From positions 1 to 38,295 of the forward strand of contig DATDXX010000041.1 of the NCBI GenBank assembly GCA_036517135.1: a stretch of 38,295 nt of DNA, written 5' to 3'. The position numbers and the translations under genes are program-made. Under the pieces are notes generated by a model. That model searched no databases. It was not told the origin of the DNA and saw only the letters and a program-made list of their open reading frames with translations. Shown here one piece after another: positions 132-38,179 of the stretch. The stretch's first letter is position 1. Each line of letters starts with the position of its first letter. The stretch comes from Minisyncoccota bacterium (GTDB lineage Bacteria; Patescibacteriota; Minisyncoccia; Phycocordibacterales; CAIRYW01).

Positions 132-205
132 TGGTGGACCCACCGGGGACCGAACCCGGGCTTCGTCCATGCCATGGACGCGTAATACCACTTTACTATG
201 GGCCC
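132..205 (-). tRNA. tRNA-Ala (anticodon GGC), 3' CCA encoded
   Basis: The reverse complement GGGCCCA-TA-GTAA-AGTGGTA-TTAC-G-CGTCC-ATGGCAT-GGACG-AAGC-CCGGG-TTCGGTC-CCCGG-TGGGTCC-ACCA folds as a cloverleaf. It has the G3:U70 Ala identity pair and anticodon GGC. Confidence 0.9.
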
Positions 206-344: not shown

Positions 345-417
345 GGGCCCTTAGCTTAGCTGGTAGAGCGCCTCATTTGCAATGAGGAGGTCACCGGTTC
401 GAATCCGGTAGGGTCCA
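345..417 (+). tRNA. tRNA-Ala (anticodon UGC), CCA not encoded
   Basis: GGGCCCT-TA-GCTT-AGCTGGTA-GAGC-G-CCTCA-TTTGCAA-TGAGG-AGGTC-ACCGG-TTCGAAT-CCGGT-AGGGTCC-A folds as a cloverleaf. It has the G3:U70 pair and is followed by AAA rather than CCA. Confidence 0.92.
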
Positions 418-4836: not shown

Positions 4837-6111
4837 TTATATCAGAAAGTTTTTGCGGCGTAATTTTTTGTGGTATGTGGTAGCGAAACGGTGCGCCTCG
4901 GCATTTGAAAGCAGGATTTCCTTTTTGTATTTGAGGCCTAACTCTTTATTCCCCAGCGCTCCTTTTGCTTTGTGCTTTTCGTCTTTGACCACAGAGACCA
5001 CGGGAATGGTTATGCCTGCTTTCTTCAGCGCTGCACTAGCCGCATTTAATTGCGCCACTACTCCGTCTACAACAATGAGATCCGGCATCTGCCATTCAGG
5101 GTGATTGAGGCGACGCTCCAAGACCTCACGCAAAGCACCTGGGTCATTAGAAGCTTTGTATCCGCGGATTTTGAATTTACGATACGAGTTTTTGTCCGGT
5201 GCTCCATCTACAAGAGCCACCATCACCCCCACCATGTTGCTTCCTCCCATATGCGCGATATCGAAACTTTCTATCCGAAAGTTTCGAGCTTCTAGCTTAG
5301 AGCTGTTGGCTGTTAGAAAAGAATCGGATTTGATAAGAGAGATGTCTTGGATGTGGGTCAAGGCATGGATCTTGTCGCGAAGTATTTTGGCCGCTTCAAA
5401 ATTATGCTCTTTTGCCAGAGCTTTCATGTCCTTCTTCAAATCCTTCGTAAGCGCTTTGATATTTCCTGAAAGAAAAAGCTTGATGCGACGGATTCTTATT
5501 GAGTAGCAATATTTATCCATAGCGCCAATGCAAACGCCGGGGCAGAGGCCGATGGAATAGTTGAAGCACGCTCTTTTAGAATTTAATTTGCACTTCTCGT
5601 CACGATAAGGGAAAATTTTCCGGATAATTTTGAGCGCCTCTTTTAGCTGAGCACCATTCGGAAATGGGCCATACACCTCCGCTAGGCCTTGTCTAGCGGA
5701 GATTAAATCCTTTTTGCGAATGGTCAAAACCTGCGGGAAATCTTCTTTTGTAATAACGACGCAGAGGAAGCTTTTATCGTCCTTTTCTCTGGTATTGTAA
5801 ATTGGCTTAAATTTCTTTATCAAATCCGCTTCCAAGAGCAGGGCTTCAAGGACGGAATCCGTCTTTTTGAAATCAAGTGCGCGGGCCTCCTTTAGCATCT
5901 TTACCAATAGCGGCCCGCGCGTCTCTATCAAATCTTTACCAAAATAACTTTTGACGCGATCCTTGAGGGATGTCGCCTTGCCTATATAAATCGGCTTTTT
6001 CTGCTTATTCAGAAAGAAATACACTCCAGGTGTATCTGGCAAGTTGTGCACTTTTTTGTATTGCATATCGTCTAGAATAGGTGTAATCTCAATTTCGGTC
6101 AAACCCTTCAT
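4837..6111 (-). CDS. uvrC: excinuclease ABC subunit C, short form lacking the C-terminal (HhH)2 domain
   Basis: The protein has an N-terminal GIY-YIG domain (GVYFF...YIGKA), a Cys cluster CFNYSIGLCPGVC, a UVR motif (EHNFEAAKILRDKIHAL) and the RNase H-like endonuclease block FRIESFDIAHMGG...AHRFA. It ends about 30 aa after AHRFA, at 424 aa, versus about 600 aa in model bacteria. Confidence 0.88.
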   Translation of the reverse strand: MKGLTEIEITPILDDMQYKKVHNLPDTPGVYFFLNKQKKPIYIGKATSLKDRVKSYFGKDLIETRGPLLVKMLKEARALDFKKTDSVLEALLLEADLIKKFKPIYNTREKDDKSFLCVVITKEDFPQVLTIRKKDLISARQGLAEVYGPFPNGAQLKEALKIIRKIFPYRDEKCKLNSKRACFNYSIGLCPGVCIGAMDKYCYSIRIRRIKLFLSGNIKALTKDLKKDMKALAKEHNFEAAKILRDKIHALTHIQDISLIKSDSFLTANSSKLEARNFRIESFDIAHMGGSNMVGVMVALVDGAPDKNSYRKFKIRGYKASNDPGALREVLERRLNHPEWQMPDLIVVDGVVAQLNAASAALKKAGITIPVVSVVKDEKHKAKGALGNKELGLKYKKEILLSNAEAHRFATTYHKKLRRKNFLI

Positions 6112-6379: not shown

Positions 6380-8971
6380 TTATTTCAAAACCTTTTTCAA
6401 ATAATGCCCAGTGTAAGATTTGCTATTATTCGCTACCTCTTCGGGCGTGCCCTTTGCCACAAGGTTGCCTCCCCCGTCCCCGCCCTCGGGGCCGATGTCA
6501 ATAATATAATCCGATGATTTGATGAGGTCCATATTGTGCTCTATGACCACCACGGTATTGCCGTGCTTCACAAGACGCTCCAGAATCTCTATCAATTTTT
6601 TGACATCTTCATAATGAAGCCCCACCGTCGGCTCATCCAAGAGATATATCGTCTTTTGGGTATGCGTCCTGTAGAGCTCGGAAGAAATTTTGACCCTCTG
6701 CGCTTCGCCTCCGGAAAGTGTCGTCGCGCTCTGACCTACTTCCAAATATCCGAGCCCTACTTCATTTAATGTGCCTAACCTGTCTGAAATAGCTGGGATG
6801 TCCTCAAAGAATGAAAGCGCCTCCTCCACCGTCATTTTCAAAATATCGTGGATGCTCTTTTTCTTGTATTTTATTTCAAGCGTCTCTTTCATAAATCTCT
6901 TGCCTCCGCACACGTCACAAGTCACATACACCGTCGGCAGGAAGTGCATCTCTACTTCTATCATTCCATTGCCTTCGCATGTCTCGCATCTGCCTCCCTT
7001 TCTGTTGAAGCTAAAGCGCCCCGGCCCCCATCCGCGCACTCTCGCCTCGGGCGTAGCCGCAAACAAATCTCTGATATGCGTCCATGCTCCCGTGTATGTG
7101 GCAGGATTGGAACGAGGGGTGCGCCCGATTGGCGACTGATCTATCAAAATTGTCCTACTCAAATATTCTGTGCCGGAGAATGACGCACAATTGTGTGTCG
7201 CTGCTGTTCTATATTTCCTCTCAAGCCGCGCTTGCAGATTTTTATGCAGTATTTCGTAGACGAAAGAGCTTTTTCCAGAGCCGGACACTCCCGTCACAAC
7301 AACGAACTTGCCCAAAGGCACTTCTACATTCATATTTTTGATATTGTAAATTTTGCCTCCTGCGATTTTTATTTTACCTTTGTCCTGCGTGCGCCTCTCG
7401 TCTGGGATTTCTATCCACTTTTCCTCGCGTAGATATGAAAGTGTGAGAGAGCCGGAATCATTCTTCTTGGCAGTGATTAGGTCGTCCAAATATCCCGAAG
7501 CGACGATGTGCCCGCCATGCACCCCCGCGCCCGGCCCTATGTCTATAATAAAATCGGAGGAAAACATTGTGTCCTCATCGTGCTCTACCACTATTATGGT
7601 GTTCCCCAGGTCCCTTAGATGCAGAAGCGTTTTTATAAGCTTGTCGTTATCCCTGTGGTGTAGGCCTATTGTGGGCTCATCCAGCACATAGAGCGCCCCA
7701 ACGAGCCCGCTTCCAAGCTGTGAAGCGAGGCGAATGCGCTGTGCTTCCCCGCCAGAAAGCGTGTTGGCTCGCCTATCAAGCGAAAGGTATTCAATGCCTA
7801 CATTGACCATGAATTGCAATCTTGCCTGTATCTCCTTTACCACCACCTTTGATATCTCCTGCTCCTTTTCGCTCAAATGAAGCTCAGCGAAAAACTTTGT
7901 AGCATCTTTGATAGACATCGCAGTGAGATCCACGATATTCCTTTTACTCCCAAGATACACATGCAAAGCTTCAGGTCGCAGTCTCTTACCCTCGCAAACC
8001 TTACATGGCTCATAAACGAAAAATTCTCTTGTGCCCAAGCCATTACATTCTGGGCAAGCTCCGTATGGAGAGTTGAAGGAGAAGAGCCGCGGCTCTATCT
8101 CTGGATACGAGAATCCGTCATGCGGACACATAAATTTGGAGGAAATAAGGTGGCTGTCATCTGGCGTCTTTATGCGAAGCAATCCTTCTGATTCGTGGAG
8201 CGCGCGCTCTATAGCTTCATTCAAGCGCTCCTTGAATCCGGCACTATTCTCTTTGAGCTCGGAGAAATAAAATTCGTCCACAAGCACATCGATGCTGTGC
8301 TTTTTGTGCTTTGAAAGGTCTATACGTTCGCGCAATTTATATTCCTTGCCGTCCACCATCACATGCTCGAATCCCTTGCCCAAAAGATCATAAAGAAGCT
8401 GATAGTATTCGCCCTTTCTGCCAACAACTATCGGAGAATAAATTTGGAATCGCAAATCGCTTACTTTCACTCCCATCACCTTCTTCGCCTTAGAATCATC
8501 AATGTGCTCCACCGTGTGCAGAATCGTCTCAAATATTTCTTCTTTTGAGAGCCGTTTTATTTCCCTATCGCAGATAAGGCAGTGCGGCTTGCCGATGCGC
8601 GCAAATAGAATGCGCAGGTAGTCATAAATTTCCGTAATAGTGGCCACTGTGGAGCGAGGATTATTTGAACGGCTCTTCTGGTCAATAGATATCGCAGGCG
8701 ACAATCCTTGTATCTCATCCACATCTGGCTTTTGCATCTGGCGCAAAAATTGCCGCGCATAGCTTGAAAGCGATTCTACATATCTACGCTGACCTTCGGC
8801 GAATATTGTATCAAAAGCAAAAGAAGATTTGCCAGAGCCCGAGAGCCCCGTCACCGCTATCATCTTATTCCTAGGCATCTCCACCGTAATGTTCTTCAAA
8901 TTGTGCGTCCGTGCCCCCTTGACCACAATCTTTTCTACATCTTTATCCAGCTTTTTGACATGTTTATGCAT
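6380..8971 (-). CDS. uvrA: excinuclease ABC subunit A
   Basis: 863 aa with two ABC ATPase modules ([18 protein letters not shown]; LSGGEAQR twice) and zinc-finger Cys clusters ([16 protein letters not shown]...CDVCGGKR). Confidence 0.97.
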
Positions 8972-9425: not shown

Positions 9426-9914
9426 ATGTCAATCGTTGGAGATATTTTTGATGAGTTGTGGAATAAAAGGTTCTACTATAAAGGTATACCTGTGAATTTT
9501 TTTGGAATCCCACGATTCAGAAGATATAATCATAATTCCTTAAAAACTACATTGAGCCAGCTAAAGCGGCACAGATTTATTGAAAAAGATGAGCGTGGCT
9601 GGTCCTTGACTCGTAGGGGCAGAGATCGTATGAAGACCGCGTATGTCTTTTTTAAAAAATTTGTATCGCCCTTTGAGAAAAATAGTCCACGAAATTTGCT
9701 GTTTATGTTTGATGTCCCCCATGAGAAAAGGCAGCATAGAGATTGGCTTCGTCGTCAGCTACGAGAATATGATTATATCATGGTCCAAAAGAGCGTTTGG
9801 GTAGGACCGTCGCCCCTGCCAGAGGAGTTTCGAGATTACATAAAAACAATCAAGATAAAGGGCTGCATAAAAACTTTTCGACTTGCTAAAGGTTATAACG
9901 GAGATAGGAGTTAA
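9426..9914 (+). CDS. winged-helix plus Cas2-like/PaaX-like fold protein (putative regulator)
   Basis: 162 aa. The segment SLKTTLSQLKRHRFIEKDERGWSLTRRG looks like a wHTH recognition helix plus wing. LLFMFDVPHEKRQHRDWLRRQLREYDYIMVQKSVWVG resembles the beta-alpha-beta core of Cas2/PaaX-type domains. The family assignment is an inference. Confidence 0.6.
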   Translation: MSIVGDIFDELWNKRFYYKGIPVNFFGIPRFRRYNHNSLKTTLSQLKRHRFIEKDERGWSLTRRGRDRMKTAYVFFKKFVSPFEKNSPRNLLFMFDVPHEKRQHRDWLRRQLREYDYIMVQKSVWVGPSPLPEEFRDYIKTIKIKGCIKTFRLAKGYNGDRS

Positions 9915-15097: not shown

Positions 15098-15207
15098 TTT
15101 ATCCAGCACCAATTTTGTAGAACAAGATAAAGTTGATATCTGTAAGTATGAAATAAATATCACAAAAATCTCAGCGTATCTATTCGGTGAAATTGGTGCT
15201 GGATAAA
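15098..15207 (+). repeat. 110-bp element with perfect 18-bp terminal inverted repeats (copy A), MITE-like
   Basis: The arms are tttatccagcaccaattt (15098-15115) and aaattggtgctggataaa (15190-15207). The interior aligns with copy B at 35677..35787 (for example aaagttgatatctgtaagtatgaaataaatat against aaagtggatacctagaaatgtgaaataaacat). Confidence 0.8.
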
Positions 15208-15236
15208 AAAAGTCCGTCACTTCATAGTGGCGGACT
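15204..15236 (-). terminator. rho-independent terminator of trpE
   Basis: The minus-strand RNA reads agtccgccac-tatgaa-gtgacggact followed by T7. The stem overlaps the TAG stop of trpE. Confidence 0.8.
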
Positions 15237-16731
15237 ATACTTCCATCAACTGGGTCCTAGCTATTGCCAAGATCATTGCGCGTGCTTTTTTGATACATTC
15301 TTCGTATTCGTTTTCTGGCACAGAATCAGCGACGATTCCGGCTCCTGCCTGCACATACGCAGTCCCGTTCTTAAGAACAACAGTGCGAAGCGCAATGCAA
15401 GAATCCATATTACCGTCGAATCCGAAATAGCCGACAGCACCAGAGTAAGCACCTCGCTTGTTGCCCTCAAAATCTCGGATAATCTGCATTGCCCGAATTT
15501 TTGGAGCGCCGGATACAGTGCCTGCCGGAAATGACAGACGCATGACATCGTAGGCATCGAACTCCGGTCGGAGCTTTGCCACTACATTTGAGACGATGTG
15601 CATAACCCGGCTGAAACGCTCAATCTCAAACATTTGGGTAACTTTGACAGAACCGAATTCAGCTATCCTGCCAATGTCATTGCGAGCCAAGTCAACAAGC
15701 ATGACGTGTTCAGCGCGTTCTTTCGGATCGGCTAGAAGTTCCCGCTCGAGATTCAGATCTTCTTCCGGGGTTCTTCCTCTCCCTCGCGTTCCCGCGATGG
15801 GACGAATGTTTACCCGTCCATTGATAGCTTTCACGTTTACTTCCGGAGAGCTACCGACAAGCGACAACTCATTCCCAAATTCAATACAAAACATGTAGGG
15901 AGATGGATTCTCCATCCACAAGGAACGGTAAAGTTCCAACGGGTCTCTTGTATACGGAGTTGAGAGCCTTTGAGAGAGAACTACCTGGAAAATGTCACCG
16001 GCATTTATGAACTCTTTTACACGAGCGACCATTTCACAGAAGCGCTCTTTGGTTGTGTTGCTATTGATCTGAATTTCCGGAGCATTGGAAGCCAAATCGA
16101 TCATCGGCAAGTAAGTCGGTGCGCCTAGGAAAAAGCGTGTCTGATCGATCTTTTCGTAAGCATTAGCATATGCCTCTTCTGCATTTCCGTTCCTGATACA
16201 GGAATTGTAAATGATATGAAGGCGTCTGGTCAGATGATCAAACACAATCACCTCCTTTGCGATCATGTAGATCATCTCGGGAATATTGAGTTCGTCTTTT
16301 TCCGCGGCCTCAAGCATTGTTGGCTCGAAAAACCTCACCACATCGTAGCCCATGTAGCCGACTGCTCCGCCAGAAAATTCCGGTAGTCCCGGAACTGACA
16401 CATAATTGAATTGTGCCATAAATGCCTTAAGCTCGTCGAGCGGCGTTCTTTCTGTTTGAAACGTTCGGGTGCGGCCGTTTTCTGTGATAGTTATCGTTCG
16501 ACCATTGCTGCGGAAAATCGCATACGGCGATCTTCCGACAAAGGAGTATCGTCCGATCTGCCCAGTCCTTTCGGCTGATTCAAGAAGAAATGAATATCCT
16601 CCCTTTAGGCGCAGATTGCTGTATGCTGTAATAGGGGTCACGGCATCCATGCTGACGATGGTAGAGACTGATATCAGATTGCCTTGTTTTGCTAGTTCGA
16701 AGAATTGCTCACGTGTCGGGATAGTGTTCAT
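15235..16731 (-). CDS. trpE: anthranilate synthase component I (chorismate-utilising MST family)
   Basis: 498 aa. It has the N-terminal Trp-feedback-type motif SFLLESAE...GRYSF and C-terminal chorismate-binding blocks (GTRGRG, FPAGTVSGAPK, RGAYSGAVGY, IALRT). PabB or another MST enzyme cannot be excluded by eye. Confidence 0.8.
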   Translation of the reverse strand: MNTIPTREQFFELAKQGNLISVSTIVSMDAVTPITAYSNLRLKGGYSFLLESAERTGQIGRYSFVGRSPYAIFRSNGRTITITENGRTRTFQTERTPLDELKAFMAQFNYVSVPGLPEFSGGAVGYMGYDVVRFFEPTMLEAAEKDELNIPEMIYMIAKEVIVFDHLTRRLHIIYNSCIRNGNAEEAYANAYEKIDQTRFFLGAPTYLPMIDLASNAPEIQINSNTTKERFCEMVARVKEFINAGDIFQVVLSQRLSTPYTRDPLELYRSLWMENPSPYMFCIEFGNELSLVGSSPEVNVKAINGRVNIRPIAGTRGRGRTPEEDLNLERELLADPKERAEHVMLVDLARNDIGRIAEFGSVKVTQMFEIERFSRVMHIVSNVVAKLRPEFDAYDVMRLSFPAGTVSGAPKIRAMQIIRDFEGNKRGAYSGAVGYFGFDGNMDSCIALRTVVLKNGTAYVQAGAGIVADSVPENEYEECIKKARAMILAIARTQLMEV

Positions 16732-16774
16732 GTTGTATAGGCTGGTTTGTTGATGTTAAAGATCATTGCGGTTT

Positions 16775-17049
16775 AAAAAAGAAAAAAACTTCTCGTCTCT
16801 TCTTGCGATAAATCACAAAAAGGGACGAAAAGTTTCGTGGTGCCACCCTAATTCAGCAAAACCCAAGTTTTGCCCTTACCAGCTTTATGCACTTTCGTGC
16901 CAACACTAGCTTACTCTGTTACGGGAACTCCCGGATTTCCACGCTGAATTGCTTCATTACAGAAATCATCCTGCCTATTTGCATAGGCGATTCAAGGCCC
17001 AATCCCACAGAGCTTGCGCTCGCGAGACCTTGAGGATATTTGTTTACCT
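16775..17049 (-). promoter_or_regulatory. T-box riboswitch leader (terminator/antiterminator type), probably tRNA-Trp responsive
   Basis: The minus-strand RNA has AAUUAGGGUGGCACCACG (plus 16836-16853). It forms an antiterminator: AGGG/CCCU helix, 7-nt bulge UGGCACC, CGAA-ACUU-UUCG helix. The competing terminator pairs ACUUUUCGUCCC with GAGACGAGAAGU (plus 16788-16799) and is followed by UUUUUUUCUUUUUU. Upstream hairpins carry GNRA loops. Confidence 0.85.
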
Positions 17050-17055
17050 TCTATT

Positions 17056-17083
17056 ATTATACACCCAATTCAAACTAACTCAA
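17056..17083 (-). promoter_or_regulatory. promoter of the T-box/trpE transcript: TTGAGT-N16-TATAAT
   Basis: The -35 box is at plus 17078-17083 (actcaa) and the -10 box at plus 17056-17061 (attata). It sits back-to-back with the -35 box of the divergent TrpR-like gene. Confidence 0.55.
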
Positions 17084-17084
17084 C

Positions 17085-17118
17085 TTGACTTATCCACAGC
17101 ATACTAGTATACTAGAAC
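17085..17118 (+). promoter_or_regulatory. promoter TTGACT-N17-TATACT overlapped by a TrpR-operator-like palindrome ATACTAGTATACTAGAAC
   Basis: TTGACT at 17085-17090 and TATACT at 17108-17113. A perfect 12-bp palindrome CTAGTATACTAG lies at 17104-17115. It has the CTAG-N4-CTAG spacing of the E. coli trp operator GTACTAGTTAACTAGTAC. Confidence 0.6.
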
Positions 17119-17125
17119 GGTGAGA

Positions 17126-17422
17126 ATGAGAAATAATAGATTCGAAAAACTTATCGAAAAATGGGAAAACAGGAAAATATCTGATGCTGATTTTTTGGCA
17201 GAATTTATTTTAAAATTTGAAAGTAAAAAAGAGATGCTTGATATGCTCTATAGCCTCTTCACTCGAACAGAAAGAAGAATGTTGGCGACAAGGCTCTTAA
17301 TAGTAAAAAAATTAAAAGAGGGTCGCTCGCAGCATGAAGTTTCAAGCTCTCTTCATGTGGGTGTTGCAACTGTAAATCGCGGTGCTTTGGAAATAGAAAA
17401 AGAAAGATTTAAATTTATCTAG
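17126..17422 (+). CDS. Trp repressor family (TrpR / YerC-YecD-like) DNA-binding protein
   Basis: LFTRTERRMLATRLLIVKKLKEGRSQHEVSSSLHVGVATVNRG aligns position-for-position with E. coli TrpR [43 protein letters not shown]. A GTG at 17120 is an alternative start. Confidence 0.85.
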   Translation: MRNNRFEKLIEKWENRKISDADFLAEFILKFESKKEMLDMLYSLFTRTERRMLATRLLIVKKLKEGRSQHEVSSSLHVGVATVNRGALEIEKERFKFI

Positions 17423-18167
17423 ATCGCCCTGCCAAAAATTGCATGCACTTTTTGTAGAATCTTTTTTCGAGAATTGCCATACCAAGATGCCCGCCTATCT
17501 TGGCCAGCATGAGTTTTGCGCCAGTTTTACCAATGAACGGCTTTAAGGGTTTCCATAACACAATATCATCGTCCTTTGCGTGAAATATGAGGCATTTGCT
17601 TCCGTCGACCTTTTCTGTTTCAGTTGAGGGATTATAAAGTTTGCCTTGCTTGATCTTCTTCCAACCGTCTTTAGCAATAACATACGCGCGCCCAAATGCC
17701 TTTTTAAGAAATGGGGCTAGCCGTTCAATTGATTCAGTAGTATTTTTCTGGTCCTGCCAATCAATGACAGGTGAAAAGCAAATAACCTTTTTAACTTCTT
17801 TTAATTTGGAATTGAGAAGCGCCGCCGGCCCGCCAAAGCTGGAGCCGATTAGATATACTTTCGGATTCCCTATCTTGAAGTTTTTGTTACCCCAAAATTC
17901 CTTAAATCCTTTCGGCAATTCGGAAATTATATCTCTGATATCCTTCGTGGGAGAATATTTAAACATAACGCCCTCACTCTCCCAGCTTCCACGGTATCGC
18001 GGGAGAAACACCCAATATCCCCTTTTTGCAAAGAATTCCATCACATCCTGTTTTTTAGGGACAGAAGGCATTCCAGAACAAAGGATCATTACTTTGTTTG
18101 ACTTCTTTGCCGGCACCGAAAATTCGCTTATAATCTCTCCTTTGAATTTTGTTCTGTATATTTCCAT
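17415..18167 (-). CDS. alpha/beta hydrolase (dienelactone hydrolase / S9-like fold)
   Basis: 250 aa with the nucleophile elbow GSSFGG, an acid near HAKDDDIV and a His in GGHLG. It is the last gene of the zwf operon. Confidence 0.8.
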   Translation of the reverse strand: MEIYRTKFKGEIISEFSVPAKKSNKVMILCSGMPSVPKKQDVMEFFAKRGYWVFLPRYRGSWESEGVMFKYSPTKDIRDIISELPKGFKEFWGNKNFKIGNPKVYLIGSSFGGPAALLNSKLKEVKKVICFSPVIDWQDQKNTTESIERLAPFLKKAFGRAYVIAKDGWKKIKQGKLYNPSTETEKVDGSKCLIFHAKDDDIVLWKPLKPFIGKTGAKLMLAKIGGHLGMAILEKRFYKKCMQFLAGRSR

Positions 18168-18169
18168 AA

Positions 18170-18793
18170 TTACTTCAAAAGAATAGCACGAGCAGGAGCT
18201 CCTTCAAGACCGATGAATTTCAAAGGAAGGCAAATAAGTTTGTAGATGCCGACTGGTACATCTTTTAGGTTAATACCTTCAATTATCGGAATATTTTTTG
18301 ACAGTAGCGATGTGTGTGAGCGGTTATCTTTGCTTCCACGCTTTTTGACTGAAATATAGTCAATGCCAAAAAGTGTTATACCGAGTTCGCCGAGATAGTC
18401 AGCTGCATCCCCGTCAAGATAAATATAATCGCCATAAAATTTTTCAAATCCTCTTTCTGAATTTGAAGTTTTCGCTAGAATTCTCTCTCCTTTTTTGATA
18501 TTTTCTCTTTTTATATCATCTAGAGTTATTGCTTCTTTTGAAGAAGTAAAGTTAATTACTCTGCAAGGACCAAAAAAAGTTTCAAGAGGAATGGTGTCAA
18601 CTGTCGCTCCTCCAATGATCGTATGAAGCGGAGCATCAACATGTGTGCCGGAATGGCTTCCCATTATAATTTTTGAGAGGTGGCTTGAACTCTCTGGCAT
18701 CTGTGCATGCGTTTCAAGCGTTACAGAAGCGTTTCCTGGATAAATTATAGTGTGGTTATTAAGTGGTAAAGAAATGTCAATTATTTTTTGCAT
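18170..18793 (-). CDS. cyclase-family metal-dependent hydrolase (kynurenine formamidase-like)
   Basis: It carries the HSGTHVDAPLH motif (HxGTHxDxPxH) of the putative cyclase / arylformamidase family. The ATG at 18793 lies 4 nt after the gnd stop, whereas the ORF-track start at 18832 is a TTG that overlaps gnd. Confidence 0.8.
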   Translation of the reverse strand: MQKIIDISLPLNNHTIIYPGNASVTLETHAQMPESSSHLSKIIMGSHSGTHVDAPLHTIIGGATVDTIPLETFFGPCRVINFTSSKEAITLDDIKRENIKKGERILAKTSNSERGFEKFYGDYIYLDGDAADYLGELGITLFGIDYISVKKRGSKDNRSHTSLLSKNIPIIEGINLKDVPVGIYKLICLPLKFIGLEGAPARAILLK

Positions 18794-18797
18794 CGCA

Positions 18798-19712
18798 TTA
18801 TTTTTTAGTTTCGTCTGTTGAATGACCGCCAAACTGATTGCGAAGCGCGGTCAAGACTTGTCCAGTATAACTAGGATTATCTTGCGAATCTATCCTGAAT
18901 TGAAGCGATTTTTCAATTATCGGGACAGGAACGCCGAATTTCTTGGCGGTTTCTATGGTCCACTGGCCTTCGCCGCTGTGCGTTACTTTGCCTGAAATAC
19001 CATCTAAGTTTGCGCCGAATTTTTGATAAGCTTCCTTCAGCCATTCAATAAGCCGAGACTCAACAACTGTGCGGTTGTTATAAACTTTAGATACTTCTTT
19101 CAAATCCAAATTAAACGGAGAATTCCTTAATACTGCAAATCCTTCCGCTATCGCCTGCATCATTCCGTACTCAATGCCGTTATGGACCATTTTAACGAAA
19201 TGTCCTGCACCCGCATTACCCATATAATGAGTGGCATTCGGAGCAGATAAATCTTCAAACAGAGTTTTACATTTTTCAAATAATTCCTTTTTACCGCCAA
19301 CCATTATTGAGGCACCATTTCTTGCTCCACTTGGTCCGCCCGAAACTCCCACGTCAAGAAAATTAATTTTTTTATTTTCTAATTCTTTTGCCCGGCGAAC
19401 CGTTTCTTCCCAAAAACAATTACCTCCATCAATTACTGTATCTCCTGCACTAAGATAAGGCACAAGCTCAGAAAGTACTGCATCAACTGCGTTATGAGAA
19501 ACCATGAGCCAGACTGTCCGCGAGATTTCAAGCGAAGCAACCAACTCTTTTATTGAATACGCTCCCTTTGCTCCCTTTTTTTCAATTTCTTTTACAGGTT
19601 CAGGGCTTCTGTTGTACGCAATTACTTCGTATCCCTTTTCTAAAAGCCGTTCCACCATACCACGCCCCATTTTGCCGAGACCGATGTAGCCAAGCTGTAT
19701 ATTTTTTTGCAT
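18798..19712 (-). CDS. gnd: 6-phosphogluconate dehydrogenase, decarboxylating, short (about 300 aa) form
   Basis: GYIGLGKMGRGM Rossmann motif, GVSGG, and the 6PGDH signature GHFVKMVHNGIEYGMMQAIAEG. Confidence 0.9.
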   Translation of the reverse strand: MQKNIQLGYIGLGKMGRGMVERLLEKGYEVIAYNRSPEPVKEIEKKGAKGAYSIKELVASLEISRTVWLMVSHNAVDAVLSELVPYLSAGDTVIDGGNCFWEETVRRAKELENKKINFLDVGVSGGPSGARNGASIMVGGKKELFEKCKTLFEDLSAPNATHYMGNAGAGHFVKMVHNGIEYGMMQAIAEGFAVLRNSPFNLDLKEVSKVYNNRTVVESRLIEWLKEAYQKFGANLDGISGKVTHSGEGQWTIETAKKFGVPVPIIEKSLQFRIDSQDNPSYTGQVLTALRNQFGGHSTDETKK

Positions 19713-34143: not shown

Positions 34144-35151
34144 TCAAATCCTGTCTTTCTGCGCGGAAAAAAATATATTCCCTGCTTTGATACCGATTTT
34201 ACCTAGAGCTTTTGAGATATAATTTTTCATTTCCTTTTCACTTTTGAAGGATATGTCCTTCCCGCCGTCAATAACTTTCCATACCTTAAGCTTTTCCAAG
34301 ACATCGAGCTTACTGAAAACCGCATGGGTAACACCGTTTATTTTTATCGCCTTTTCAAGCATTTGCATATTCATCCAGTTGCATTGCCGGGGCCTCCCTG
34401 TTGTTGCTCCATATTCTTCGCCAATATCCCTCATTTTTTGAAAGATCGGTTCGTTCGGCTCGAACTTTTTAAGCCCTACATAAGTTTCGTAGATTTTAGC
34501 GACACCCCAAACGTTTTTTACGGCAGAATACGGAATGCCGTTTAAAAGCGCGCCAGCTGTCGTGCAGTGGCTTGAAGTAACATATGGATAATCGCCCCAG
34601 TCGATATCAAGTCCGAAGCCTTGCGCGCCTTCGCATAAAATATTTAAATTTTTATTTTTTCCGTCCGAAAATTCGTCGTAAAGATCAATTAGATAGGGCT
34701 TGAGTTCAGAAAGGGATTCGGCGCGTATTCCTGTCCGCGCATATTTGTCTCTGTAGGCAGGACCGTTGCCGCGCTTTGTTGTGCCAATTTTTCCTCCTGA
34801 ACCGTCTTCTTCTTTATGCTTTGGCGTAATTATGTGAGTATTACGCGCAACAAAAATCTTTTCCTTTACATCAATTCCACCGTCTTCAAGCTCTTTAATT
34901 TCTTTCAAAAATTGCTCCGGATCAAGAACACAGCCGGAGCCGATAATGGACTTCACTCCAAAAAATACTCCTGCTGGAATATGGTGTGTTACGAATTTCT
35001 TGCCATCATGATAGATGGTGTGTCCCGCATTGCATCCGCCATTATAGCGAAGAACGTGAGTGTATTTTTTCTTCTTGCATAAATGATGCGCCACTTTTCC
35101 TTTGGCGCAATCCCCGTACTGCAAGTCAACGATGATATCTGTTTTAATCAA
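34144..35151 (-). CDS. purA: adenylosuccinate synthetase, short (335 aa) form
   Basis: P-loop-like DLQYGDCAKGKV, NAGHT, GTTKRGNGPAY, GAQGFGLDIDWGDYPYVTSS and GATTGRPR. The initiation codon is TTG. Confidence 0.88.
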   Translation of the reverse strand: MIKTDIIVDLQYGDCAKGKVAHHLCKKKKYTHVLRYNGGCNAGHTIYHDGKKFVTHHIPAGVFFGVKSIIGSGCVLDPEQFLKEIKELEDGGIDVKEKIFVARNTHIITPKHKEEDGSGGKIGTTKRGNGPAYRDKYARTGIRAESLSELKPYLIDLYDEFSDGKNKNLNILCEGAQGFGLDIDWGDYPYVTSSHCTTAGALLNGIPYSAVKNVWGVAKIYETYVGLKKFEPNEPIFQKMRDIGEEYGATTGRPRQCNWMNMQMLEKAIKINGVTHAVFSKLDVLEKLKVWKVIDGGKDISFKSEKEMKNYISKALGKIGIKAGNIFFSAQKDRI

Positions 35152-35887: not shown

Positions 35888-36100
35888 ATGCTCGCCCCTC
35901 GTTACATACCTGAAGTAATTTTTCACGCTGGCTTGCCACCGCAACCGATACGGCAAATCAGAGTCCTCGTCGACGATGAGAAAATCTTAGGCAAGCTTCT
36001 TACTGAGGTGCTCCCAGAAGCAGACGCTAAAGGAATTCTCTTCCGGCGCAAAATAAAAAAAGTCGAGGAGCGCTACTGCCTCTACTGCGCGCGTAGATAA
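35888..36100 (+). CDS. hypothetical small basic protein (70 aa)
   Basis: The ORF is followed 4 nt later by a strong plus-strand terminator. I recognised no motif. Confidence 0.45.
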   Translation: MLAPRYIPEVIFHAGLPPQPIRQIRVLVDDEKILGKLLTEVLPEADAKGILFRRKIKKVEERYCLYCARR

Positions 36101-36104
36101 TCCA

Positions 36105-36140
36105 CCACCCAGATTCTTCTAGGAATCTGGGTGGTTTTTT
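36105..36140 (+). terminator. rho-independent terminator
   Basis: ccacccagattc-ttctag-gaatctgggtgg followed by T6. Confidence 0.85.
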
Positions 36141-36178
36141 ATATCTGTATAGCTACCGATTAGAGAAGATCCCGAATC

Positions 36179-38179
36179 CTAAGGATTCTGCTCGTCGCAA
36201 TGGCCTGGGCCGATTGTGCCCTCGTTGAAAGAGCCCAGAGTGCCCGCCCAACCCACTACTTGAGTGCGTAGAGCATGCTTCTTGCCGAGAGCCGAGAAGC
36301 TTGCCGGCGTGTAGGAGTCAAAGAAATCTTCTGCGCTAGTAATGGCACTTGCCACGCCAGCAGGCGCTGCAGCACCGTTCAGCACATTTAGCTTCGCCGC
36401 CATGTATTGATGAGCAAGATTGTAGTAGGCATTGCCGGAGGGTGACGTCCAGAACACCGAGAACCATGTGAATGGAGGAACATTCGGTCCGACGACAGGA
36501 TATGAATTTACTGTGGTGAAGAATCCTGAAAGCTCTGCAAGGGTCGTTATGTTGTCCCAGTTGTCATCAGTCGGAGCGCCGCCCTTGAATGAATCGTTGT
36601 GCGTCTTCCAATAGCCCTGGGTCAGAGTACAGCCTTGGAAGCAATCGGTGACGGTAATGTGCACATTCCAATTGTCCGCTCCGGGCGTCTGCGTGTCGTT
36701 TGTGACGAATCGCGCTTCGTTCGGCCAATCATTCTCACCACATTCTAAAATGACATCAGCGGGGGCATCTGTGCCGAAAGTGATGGTGTATTGGAATAGC
36801 TCGCTGTCGCTACCATCTCCGGCGCATACGACTTGTCCTTGAGGACCCTCGGCATTTGTGTCGTTTACTGTGATGCATTCGTCTATCTCATTATCTGGAG
36901 CGCCCCACACTACCGGAGCATTGGCTGTGCCGCCAGAAATACCATCCACTCCCACTTCTACCGTATTTTGCGTATCAACGGGGCCTGCCACATTCTTGCT
37001 GTAAGTGCAATTGATGGACTCTCCCGGTCCGAGAACGACAGGTATTGAAGGGGCGCAGACGACAGGCGTCACGAGCCCGGTGATATCAAGCAAATCAGTG
37101 ACGGATGTGATATTCATCGCCGGATTGCCTTGGGGGTTCGTGATAGTAATCGTCCCGCTTACTGTGTGATTTGTATCTGTCGATGTGGCGCTGACGAGCA
37201 CATCGTAATTCACATCAAAGAGCTGTCCGTCGGTAATATCTAGGTCCGTCTGGTCGGCGCGCTTGTCAATTGTCCAATGCCACTCACGGTCATACGAGGT
37301 CTCTGCCGTCTTTTCTATCACAAGCGGCTGTACAGGGTCGATAGTGAACGGCTCGCAGACTCCCACAACGGGTTCATAGTTGGCATCTCCTCCGTATCTA
37401 GCGAGGAAAGAATAGCTCCCTGCGGCTAGCGCGGGGTAATCAACAGACTCTGCCATTCCCCCGCTTGATGTGTATATGGCTCCGTCAATAGGAGGATTCA
37501 AATCGCATGTCCCGTTGCCGTAGAGCACAATCGTCACATCGCCCGTTGGCGCTGGGCCGGACACGACGATTGTCGCCTTGTCGTGCACTGTCGTGCCTTC
37601 AAACACAGAGCCATTTGTGATATCTATGTGAGCCGGGTCATGGACTTCCGTGTGCACTTCTGAAGGAAGCTTCTCAAAGGTAGTGGCGGCTGGGGTGTTG
37701 GCGCCGACTGGCGTCACATTGCCGCCTAGATGTGATGTGCCCCCAGAATATACTGCAGAGGCATTGAGGAATCCTCCCGAGACATCAGCCGAGCTGACCA
37801 CATATGTGGCAAGCGAGCCGACGAAGGGAGTGCTGGTGCTCACAAGAGGAATTACCCCGCCATCGACATCGTTGTTTGTGCCATCTGGCGCAATGATGTC
37901 TAAATCGCCGCCTTCGTAATTGCAATTTGTGCCGCCGGCGTGGCTAAGAGTGGCGCGATACTTGATGGTCTCGCCCGGCGTCACAGTACCGGCGCCGACT
38001 GGCGTCGTGCCATCAGCGCGCAATACCGTAAGCGAAAGAGAGACGCCTGTGGAATCGCATCCGCCCGGGCTTGTGTGTGCATTCGCGGGAGTTATAGAAA
38101 ATAAAAACCCAAACGCCGCGAGAGCCATAATGGCTGTCATGGCTAGAGCGCGCCCGAACGACTTATTTAATATATGCAT
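36179..38179 (-). CDS. large secreted/cell-surface protein with Ig-like repeats and a Cys-containing C-terminal GYWKTH domain
   Basis: 666 aa with signal/anchor MTAIMALAAFGFLFSITPANA. It has bacterial Ig-like patterns (TVHDKATIVVSGPAPTGDVTIVLYGNGTC...GSYSFLARYGGDANYEP), is rich in T/G/V/D/N, and has a C-terminal CTLTQGYWKTH...AHQYMAAKLN block. Confidence 0.85.
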   Translation of the reverse strand: MHILNKSFGRALAMTAIMALAAFGFLFSITPANAHTSPGGCDSTGVSLSLTVLRADGTTPVGAGTVTPGETIKYRATLSHAGGTNCNYEGGDLDIIAPDGTNNDVDGGVIPLVSTSTPFVGSLATYVVSSADVSGGFLNASAVYSGGTSHLGGNVTPVGANTPAATTFEKLPSEVHTEVHDPAHIDITNGSVFEGTTVHDKATIVVSGPAPTGDVTIVLYGNGTCDLNPPIDGAIYTSSGGMAESVDYPALAAGSYSFLARYGGDANYEPVVGVCEPFTIDPVQPLVIEKTAETSYDREWHWTIDKRADQTDLDITDGQLFDVNYDVLVSATSTDTNHTVSGTITITNPQGNPAMNITSVTDLLDITGLVTPVVCAPSIPVVLGPGESINCTYSKNVAGPVDTQNTVEVGVDGISGGTANAPVVWGAPDNEIDECITVNDTNAEGPQGQVVCAGDGSDSELFQYTITFGTDAPADVILECGENDWPNEARFVTNDTQTPGADNWNVHITVTDCFQGCTLTQGYWKTHNDSFKGGAPTDDNWDNITTLAELSGFFTTVNSYPVVGPNVPPFTWFSVFWTSPSGNAYYNLAHQYMAAKLNVLNGAAAPAGVASAITSAEDFFDSYTPASFSALGKKHALRTQVVGWAGTLGSFNEGTIGPGHCDEQNP

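Follow-up and report, generated by a model that had tools for sequence, protein, structure and literature searches.

A T-box leader of probable tRNA-Trp specificity precedes a lone trpE in a Patescibacterium genome

Why would a solitary anthranilate synthase gene stand behind what looks like a sensor of tRNA charging in the Patescibacteria, whose gene regulation is almost unknown and which are thought to lack amino-acid biosynthesis (PMC11665869)? The gene, trpE, and its leader lie in a window of 38,295 nucleotides, the whole stretch of DNA analysed (contig DATDXX010000041.1 of assembly GCA_036517135.1, from a Minisyncoccota bacterium); all coordinates refer to this window, in which the leader and trpE are on the minus strand and a trpR-like gene is on the plus strand. 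A preliminary description had proposed a T-box leader sensing uncharged tRNA-Trp at 16775-17049. We confirm that this stretch of the minus strand is a T-box leader, and every sequence feature described for it was found. Its match to the Rfam T-box model RF00230, its UGGC bulge and a conserved UGG triplet support the core of that proposal, and we consider it highly probable that the leader works as a tRNA-Trp-specific T-box riboswitch of the transcription-terminating kind and gates a monocistronic trpE.

The leader matches the T-box family over the full length of the model. A covariance-model scan of 16650-17250 (601 nt) against all 4227 Rfam families, the check that had been proposed for this locus, aligned model positions 1-219 of RF00230 to 16818-17062 with 58.3 bits and E=4e-12. 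The identical DNA gave E=1.8e-10 in a 26.9-kb search, and the runner-up family in the 601-nt scan reached E=0.07. Posterior probabilities are high from Stem II onward, with Stem II, Stem IIA/B and its F-box, and Stem III with its purines aligned to model positions 105-185; Stem I aligns poorly, with non-canonical pairs. The F-box follows the published definition (PMC7583486), and the surroundings of Stem III fit the RRRxG-Stem III-AA motif (PMC7583486). Between the promoter and the trpE start codon (16731) the leader measures about 320 nt and folds at -100.9 kcal/mol (z = -5.6 against shuffles).

Downstream of Stem III, the leader carries two mutually exclusive structures of very different strength. 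Its T-box sequence agrees with the consensus at 17 of 18 positions, Ns included, and GGTGGNACCNCG is matched once within the window. The strand ACUUUUCGUCCC is common to the 3' half of the antiterminator and to the terminator, so that one structure precludes the other. The antiterminator is weak (-6.4 kcal/mol) and the terminator strong (-30.0 kcal/mol, z = -6.2 against shuffles), which is the asymmetry that a ligand-stabilised antiterminator requires. The terminator U-tract ends 44 nt upstream of the trpE ATG. A class II (translational) design does not fit, with U7CU6 following the alternative helix and no Shine-Dalgarno-like sequence within it. Most of this had been anticipated: the T-box sequence with a single deviation, helix A1, the 7-nt bulge and the re-use of the antiterminator's 3' half in a hairpin followed by a U-run were all borne out, and only helix A2 needed correction, from 4 bp to 5. 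The earlier prediction of G73 from the C of the bulge gains support from comparison, UGGC being found in six of seven aligned Firmicute trpE T-boxes as well. The leader thus contains a T-box core, competing terminator and antiterminator, and Stems II, IIA/B and III.

Little RNA precedes Stem I. From the spacing of the predicted promoter we infer a transcription start near 17049, which leaves only about 12-16 nt ahead of Stem I and no room for a K-turn helix. We found no leader peptide: the sole short open reading frame (ORF) of the leader, MISVMKQFSVEIREFP up to its stop, has no Trp codon when read by eye.

Stem I is short, as had been stated beforehand, with a helix of 6-8 bp and a small hairpin, and UGG at 17001-16999, followed by G16998, appears from its sequence context to be the likeliest Specifier. 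We take it as such because its register equals the codon-purine-lower helix order of Firmicute trpE T-boxes, GAU-UGG-G-CC in the window against AAA-UGG-A-CC in the Firmicutes. In the minimum-free-energy (MFE) fold of 17037-16962, the lower helix can be extended by a U-G and a C-G pair, and the 3' side of the loop then reads GGAUUG(GG). UGG triplets had been pointed out in two upstream hairpins, and both lie at the positions given for them. As Specifier candidates they part ways: the one within 16998-17007 is conserved in a second leader, on contig L049, whereas the one at 16941-16939, within the internal loop of Stem II, is not kept as a loop there. We rejected an Rfam-style Stem I, with a GCGCAA/UUGGGC helix, an 11-nt 'distal loop' and the Specifier in the neighbouring hairpin PX; at -5.4 kcal/mol it is less stable than the short-stem folds (-11.8 to -19.0), and it is not kept in L049. 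Modelling suggests that PX and Stem I may together be enclosed by a helix of AUCC (17037-17034) and GGAU (16971-16968), a tentative closure that is not predicted in L049. No S-turn (AGUA/GAA) was recognised in the window leader, Stem II included.

The leader on L049 shares the core and diverges around it. It precedes trpE-trpS, its TrpE is 62% identical to that of the window, and this T-box ahead of trpE-trpS is a classic tRNA-Trp regulon. L049 TrpS is 69-74% identical to proteins of Falkowbacteria and other Patescibacteria, which makes the contig a second, Falkowbacteria-like lineage of the Candidate Phyla Radiation (CPR). The two leaders are identical in GGAUUGGGCC (after a hairpin), CCGUAAC, AAUUAGGGUGGCACCACGA and the terminator strand AAGAGACGnGnAGnU7, and the proposed UGG Specifier and its loop are invariant. 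MAFFT misaligned the leaders, whole or Stem I alone, owing to large insertions, and pairs were therefore counted by hand or script; in the script comparison, four of the six pairs of the Stem I lower helix show compensatory changes. Helices of unrelated sequence persist in L049 at the distal hairpin, PX, Stem II and Stem III. A different, longer hairpin occupies the PX site, extra hairpins are also inserted in the linker region, and Stem IIA/B reads CGG-CAUCCU-CCG-UAAC, with a downstream AGGAU able to pair with its loop. An insertion of about 45 nt with hairpins of its own (L049 2353-2400) lies inside the A2 loop of the antiterminator and recalls the lineage-specific 'stem Sa' of staphylococcal glyS T-boxes.

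Among contigs of the closest TrpE proteins, only L049 bears a T-box; L048, L050 and L051 bear leader peptides, and a further one of these proteins, P0004, has no contig on record. In a set of 5.8 billion proteins, the nearest TrpE relatives are six proteins 60-62% identical to that of the window and 70-84% identical to one another, with verrucomicrobial TrpE next at 57-60%. In GTDB representative genomes and JGI metagenomes, identity did not exceed 50% for full-length relatives and 59% for fragments. The trpE genes of Verrucomicrobia, Kiritimatiellae and Victivallales that were inspected had no T-box core beside them. Among relatives of L049 TrpS, trpS stands apart from trpE and again has no T-box core. 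Control of the orthologous trpE in L048, L050 and L051 looks like classical leader-peptide attenuation. Upstream regions of the three (L048 3750-4000, L050 160-455, L051 1-281) hold a TrpR operator, CATACTAGTATG, with a Trp-codon leader ORF and conserved hairpins; the ORFs read MESWWGAEASGFSAFAPVC, ...GESWWCAKGSSFLAFALFC and MKFWRGAEASAFALFC, each up to its stop codon. The L048 operon runs trpS-trpR-leader-trpE-aroA/aroK-aroQ/aroE-DAHP synthase, and its TrpS shares no more than about 40% identity with TrpS proteins of CPR bacteria.

The gene behind the window leader encodes, to judge from its sequence, a genuine feedback-type TrpE. The protein scores 544.6 bits against the NCBIfam equivalog TIGR00564 (cut-off 517.7), contains the Pfam domains Anth_synt_I_N and Chorismate_bind, and stays below the respective cut-offs of the PabB, isochorismate synthase and salicylate synthase models. 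Its motifs are LLES, NPSPYM and PIAGT, the last in place of the PIKGT of PabB; we take LLES and NPSPYM to be the Trp feedback site and PIAGT to mark the anthranilate synthase type. A terminator at 15235-15204 makes trpE monocistronic, FKBP and then tgt lie beyond it, and family scans found neither trpG nor any other trp or aro gene in the 38-kb window. Within that span, the earlier picture of a lone trpE with its own terminator and with FKBP and tgt as the next genes is correct.

Transfer RNA charging is probably not the sole tryptophan input at the locus. The T-box agrees with the charging input proposed in the preliminary description, which however overlooked a divergent trpR-like gene and an operator-like element at 17099-17116. 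The encoded protein scores 48.8 bits against PF01371 (cut-off 27) and 39.9 bits against the equivalog TIGR01321, below the cut-off of 67. With its two CTAG cores the element resembles the E. coli trp operator, and a near-identical ACTAGTATGCTG precedes the orthologous trpE of L050 and L048. The position of the element, overlapping the trpR promoter and immediately upstream of the trpE -35 box, makes autoregulation by TrpR probable.

Table 1. Features of the trpR/T-box/trpE locus, in window coordinates
Feature	Position	Strand	Sequence or property	Basis
Predicted sigma-70-type leader promoter	17056..17083	-	-35 TTGAGT 17083-17078, 16-nt spacer, -10 TATAAT 17061-17056; 10/12 matches	
Short Stem I	16992..17033	-	lower helix UCAAGG 17033-17028 / CCUUGA 16997-16992	MFE folds; comparison with L049
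Stem I distal hairpin	17024-17006	-	CGCGAGC-GCAA-GCUCuGUG; simple GNRA hairpin	MFE folds
Stem I internal loop, 3' side	17005-16998	-	GGAUUGGG	MFE folds
Proposed Specifier UGG and purine G	17001-16999 and 16998	-	plus strand reads CCA	register; conservation in L049
Hairpin PX	16973..16988	-	GCCUAU-GCAA-AUAGGC; between Stem I and Stem II	folds
Stem II	16934..16967	-	GAUUUC...GAAAUC, internal loop, GCAA-capped tip	RF00230 positions 105-137, high posteriors; fold
Stem IIA/B with F-box-like sequence	16918..16933	-	CCCGUAAC (CGGG-AGUU-CCCG-UAAC)	RF00230 alignment
Linker hairpin	16881..16911	-	AGCU...GCAC-GAAA-GUGC...AGCU	insertion relative to the Rfam model
Stem III	16856..16873	-	GCAAAAC-UUGG-GUUUUGC; purines AAGGG before, ..AA after	
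T-box sequence	16853-16836	-	AAUUAGGGUGGCACCACG	differs from consensus AANNNGGGUGGNACCGCG solely by A for G
Antiterminator	16849-16821	-	A1 AGGG/CCCU; bulge UGGCACC 16845-16839; A2 ACGAA/UUCGU (5 bp)	
Intrinsic terminator	16836-16785 (hairpin), 16788-16775 (U-tract)	-	24 pairs, one mismatch; U-tract UUUUUUUCUUUUUU (U7CU6)	
trpE, anthranilate synthase component I	15235..16731	-	498 aa	TIGR00564, Pfam
Terminator after trpE	15204..15235	-	GUCCGcCACU-AUGA-AGUGaCGGAC then U7	-13.2 kcal/mol, z = -4.5
trpR-like repressor gene	17126..17422	+	98 aa from ATG; frame opens at GTG 17120	gene also called on identical contigs
Predicted trpR promoter	17085-17113	+	TTGACT-17-TATACT	
TrpR-operator-like element	17099-17116		TCTAGTATACTAGTATGC (minus-strand reading); two CTAG cores 8 bp apart	overlaps trpR promoter

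The host, an ultrasmall groundwater bacterium, is a Patescibacterium with a Paceibacteria-like CPR genome, and the trpR/T-box/trpE block reads as a lineage-specific insertion in it. UvrB is 79-85% identical to proteins assigned to the Patescibacteria group, Candidatus Paceibacterota and Candidatus Taylorbacteria. Relatives L053 (UvrB 81%) and L056 (84%) keep the order DUF2914...MarR...FKBP-tgt...uvrB and are without a cyclase, an alpha/beta hydrolase, trpR, T-box and trpE at the syntenic site, and it is this absence from both that points to insertion. There they carry instead glutamate dehydrogenase (both), 6-phosphogluconolactonase (L053), and ABC transporters and a serine hydrolase (L056). 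Base composition gave no signal of transfer, trpE (GC content 0.478; GC3, 0.493) being indistinguishable from uvrA, uvrB and tgt. Within the region 17415-18832 of the minus strand, the cyclase-family protein (18170-18832) resembles solved kynurenine formamidases over its full length (4COG, 4CO9, 4CZ1 and 4COB; E 1e-27 to 1e-32) and is followed by the alpha/beta hydrolase, which has no solved relative. An enzyme of tryptophan-catabolic type thus adjoins a putative tryptophan-starvation-induced anthranilate synthase.

These features suggest how the leader might work. Transcription would begin near 17049, and with no uncharged tRNA bound the terminator would form and halt the polymerase about 45 nt short of the trpE start codon. 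Uncharged tRNA-Trp would make two contacts: its CCA anticodon with the UGG Specifier, presented by the internal loop of the short Stem I, and its free 3' end (G73-C-C-A) with UGGC of the 7-nt bulge. These pairings would stabilise the weak antiterminator and allow trpE to be transcribed. Charged tRNA would be unable to form the 3'-end contact. The divergent TrpR would contribute a second input from free tryptophan. In this scheme it is the identity of the Specifier, the start site, the binding of tRNA and the action of TrpR on trpE that we infer.

Several observations weigh against a functional tRNA-Trp riboswitch. The RF00230 score of 58.3 bits falls below the gathering score of 93 bits (Rfam 15), and a whole-window Rfam scan at gathering thresholds returned tRNA alone, the T-box emerging only with E-value thresholds. 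Firmicute trpE leaders scanned with RF00230 scored 100, 97, 93.9, 93.4, 91.6, 73.7 and 43.5 bits. Three evident Firmicute trp-operon T-boxes are thus below 93 bits (L037 2595-2843, 91.6; L010 5653-5906, 73.7; L007 5664-5854, 43.5), so the gathering cut-off also excludes true members. RF00230 went undetected in the L049 leader, even at E<=10 on 471 nt; its A2-loop and other insertions would make it invisible to the model, and its membership rests on the shared motifs. The comparative sample amounts to two independent leaders, so covariation support is thin, and four other trpE contigs (L025-L028), from aquifer metagenomes, are 100% identical to the window and add no population variation. Such identical contigs are present in the Rifle groundwater assemblies ERZ28563803, ERZ27254752, JGI 3300002502 and SRR3989344. 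In the MFE fold, with a lower helix of 8-9 bp, both Gs of UGG pair with UC, so that the Specifier is not obviously exposed, and the RF00230 alignment sets another Stem I register. Neither an AG bulge of the AGAGA type on the 5' strand nor a distal-loop platform was found in the window's Stem I, and the AGAGA-type bulge was not found in the L049 leader either. No tRNA-Trp gene, the place to check for G73, was found in the window or in the related loci searched. Because the operator sits upstream of the trpE -35 box and leaves the promoter itself uncovered, repression of trpE by TrpR is uncertain.

Could the leader be a T-box for another amino acid? Other possible codons in the loop GGAUUGGG are GAU (Asp), AUU (Ile) and UUG (Leu), and if the MFE fold with its lower helix of 8 bp forms, the loop is GGAUUG, in which AUU and G form a triplet and purine beside the helix. 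The RF00230 alignment puts the Specifier region over GCAAAUAGG, a register that yields AAU (Asn) inside PX. We nevertheless judge a non-Trp Specifier very unlikely. The C of the bulge predicts G73, which disfavours Ile and Leu, whose tRNAs have A73 as the discriminator; tRNA-Asp also has G73, but GAU is followed by U and not by the conserved purine. The Asn triplet falls within a perfect hairpin in the window, and in L049 a different hairpin presents GGG or another triplet, unconserved. Moreover, trpE follows both leaders, the L049 operon also holds trpS, and the NNN-UGG-R-CC register is shared with Firmicute Trp T-boxes. Even less credible to us is a decaying relic, brought in with trpE and binding no tRNA, so that TrpR sets expression or the gene is effectively silent. 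Such decay would agree with a Stem I that has no elbow-binding platform, K-turn or clear S-turn, with the low RF00230 score and with a module recently inserted relative to relatives. It agrees poorly with a nearly perfect discriminator domain, an intact overlap of terminator and antiterminator, and a reduced architecture, invariant loop and compensatory changes that are kept in a lineage whose TrpE is 62% identical. TrpE itself is intact, with its motifs conserved, which would be unexpected if a permanently closed -30 kcal/mol terminator stood before the gene.

If the leader is, as we favour, a working tRNA-Trp T-box, its gene may still be less of an orphan than it looks. We put at a little under even the chance that the genome holds trpG/D/C/F/B/A and the chorismate pathway outside the window and that this trpE is the ordinary regulated first step of a split regulon, as in many bacteria in which the attenuator is confined to the first gene. 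Sinorhizobium meliloti (PMC6614838) is one of the well-known cases of a regulated monocistronic trpE(G) in a split arrangement; the L048 ortholog heads a shikimate-pathway operon, which places members of this TrpE clade in biosynthetically competent genomes; and the window's TrpE keeps its Trp feedback motifs, in a view limited to 38 kb of the genome. On the other hand, amino-acid biosynthesis is generally absent from Patescibacteria (PMC11665869), the window is empty of trpG and other trp or aro genes, trpE itself is missing at the syntenic site in two close relatives, and neither trpG nor trpD follows trpE in L049, L050 or L048. A bolder proposal, which we think unlikely though worth stating, is that a lineage unable to make amino acids acquired only the first committed Trp step, under the double watch of TrpR for free Trp and a minimal T-box for uncharged tRNA-Trp, as part of a pathway shared with a host cell, for instance through anthranilate, and that the T-box works without elbow platform, K-turn and S-turn. 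Membrane-permeant anthranilate would then be turned into tryptophan by the partner, as in the Buchnera/Serratia split.

T-boxes are regarded as mainly a Gram-positive device. The preliminary description had called a tRNA-Trp riboswitch on this gene unusual, and that judgement needs to be redirected: a T-box before trpE is itself common in Bacillota (PMC12452182), and the unusual points are the host phylum, the stripped Stem I and the lone trpE. With class I trp T-boxes of Bacillota the window leader shares the T-box sequence, UGGC bulge, terminator/antiterminator pair, Stem II, IIA/B F-box, Stem III, the NNN-UGG-R-CC Specifier register and trpE as the regulated gene. In the Bacillota leaders, by contrast, Stem I is long and includes a K-turn, a distal loop, an AGAGA bulge and a Specifier Loop with an S-turn (AGUA/GAA). 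Those leaders, often in tandem, usually precede a whole trpEGDCFBA operon. The window has instead a Stem I helix of 6-8 bp with a small hairpin, PX, a linker hairpin, a lone gene and an adjacent TrpR gene. The AG bulge and distal-loop platform of a long Stem I are generally deemed necessary in transcriptional T-boxes, and a short Stem I is typical of translational actinobacterial ones (PMC7583486); on that view a stripped Stem I with a terminator is an unusual combination. The class II ileS T-boxes of actinobacteria likewise have a truncated Stem I without elbow platform and retain Stem II and the IIA/B pseudoknot region (PMC7583486). They sequester the Shine-Dalgarno sequence and belong to Ile, whereas the window has an intrinsic terminator, belongs in all probability to Trp and shows no clear S-turn in Stem II. 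Such ileS T-boxes, with intermediate or ultrashort Stem I, were reportedly described by Sherwood et al. in 2015.

The proposed regulation also has parallels outside the T-box family. Like E. coli with TrpR and trpL attenuation, the locus would combine an input from free Trp with one from tRNA-Trp charging, and its CTAG cores lie 8 bp apart; the trpE genes of L048, L050 and L051 have exactly the E. coli-type TrpR operator and Trp-codon leader peptide. Unlike in E. coli, the charging sensor in the window would be a T-box RNA and not a translated leader peptide, and the operator overlaps the trpR promoter, not the trpE promoter. In Bacillus subtilis, TRAP senses free Trp and a T-box controls the anti-TRAP (rtpA) operon. 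That arrangement, too, joins a protein sensor of free Trp to a tRNA-Trp-specific T-box, but acts indirectly via anti-TRAP, whereas in the window the T-box directly precedes trpE and TrpR takes the place of TRAP. Among aphid symbionts, Buchnera BCc retains only trpEG and Serratia symbiotica trpDCBA (PMC5054487, PMC4898801). If the pathway here is truly split, the likeness would be of a reduced-genome symbiont keeping the anthranilate synthase step, with anthranilate as the membrane-permeant hand-over. For Buchnera the genomes are complete, trpG is present and regulation is largely lost; for the window the split is hypothetical, trpG was unseen in 38 kb and regulation is elaborate. Our literature search returned no paper linking T-boxes with Patescibacteria or CPR. 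New in this locus are the phylum, the reduced Stem I with a terminator, the pairing with TrpR and the lone inserted trpE.

The window and the comparison contigs hold other features of note. The genes uvrA and uvrB are separated by a Cas2-like/PaaX central-domain ORF (PF20803, PF09827) at 9426-9914 (+); other cas genes are absent from its vicinity, and the ORF occupies the same place in L056. A divergent tRNA-Ala pair stands at the window edge (132-205, minus strand; 345-417, plus strand) with anticodons GGC and UGC, about 140 nt apart. GC content, 0.43 over the window, reaches 0.535 at 36001-38179, inside a 666-aa ORF; Big_3_5 (bacterial Ig-like) is the sole family match of that ORF. Three ORFs are short for their families: UvrC (4837-6111, 424 aa), UvrA (6380-8971, 863 aa) and adenylosuccinate synthetase (34144-35151, 335 aa), the last with its Pfam match in two pieces. 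UvrA and UvrC have similar lengths in L052 and L056 and so seem to reflect a lineage trait and not an assembly error. Downstream of the trp region on a Clostridium contig, L024 7444-7615 matches the glycine-GGAnGA aptamer RF03166 at 91 bits against a gathering score of 110.

Default Rfam annotation, with its 93-bit cut-off, hides T-box variants such as the one in the window. If our reading is true, riboswitches that sense tRNA are in use in at least two CPR lineages, and among orthologous trpE genes one charging sensor has replaced another, leader-peptide attenuation in some and a T-box in others. A compact terminator-type T-box without an elbow platform would test the need for the elbow contact in fast tRNA capture. 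The locus would, finally, point to a tryptophan step that an episymbiont regulates and that its host possibly complements.

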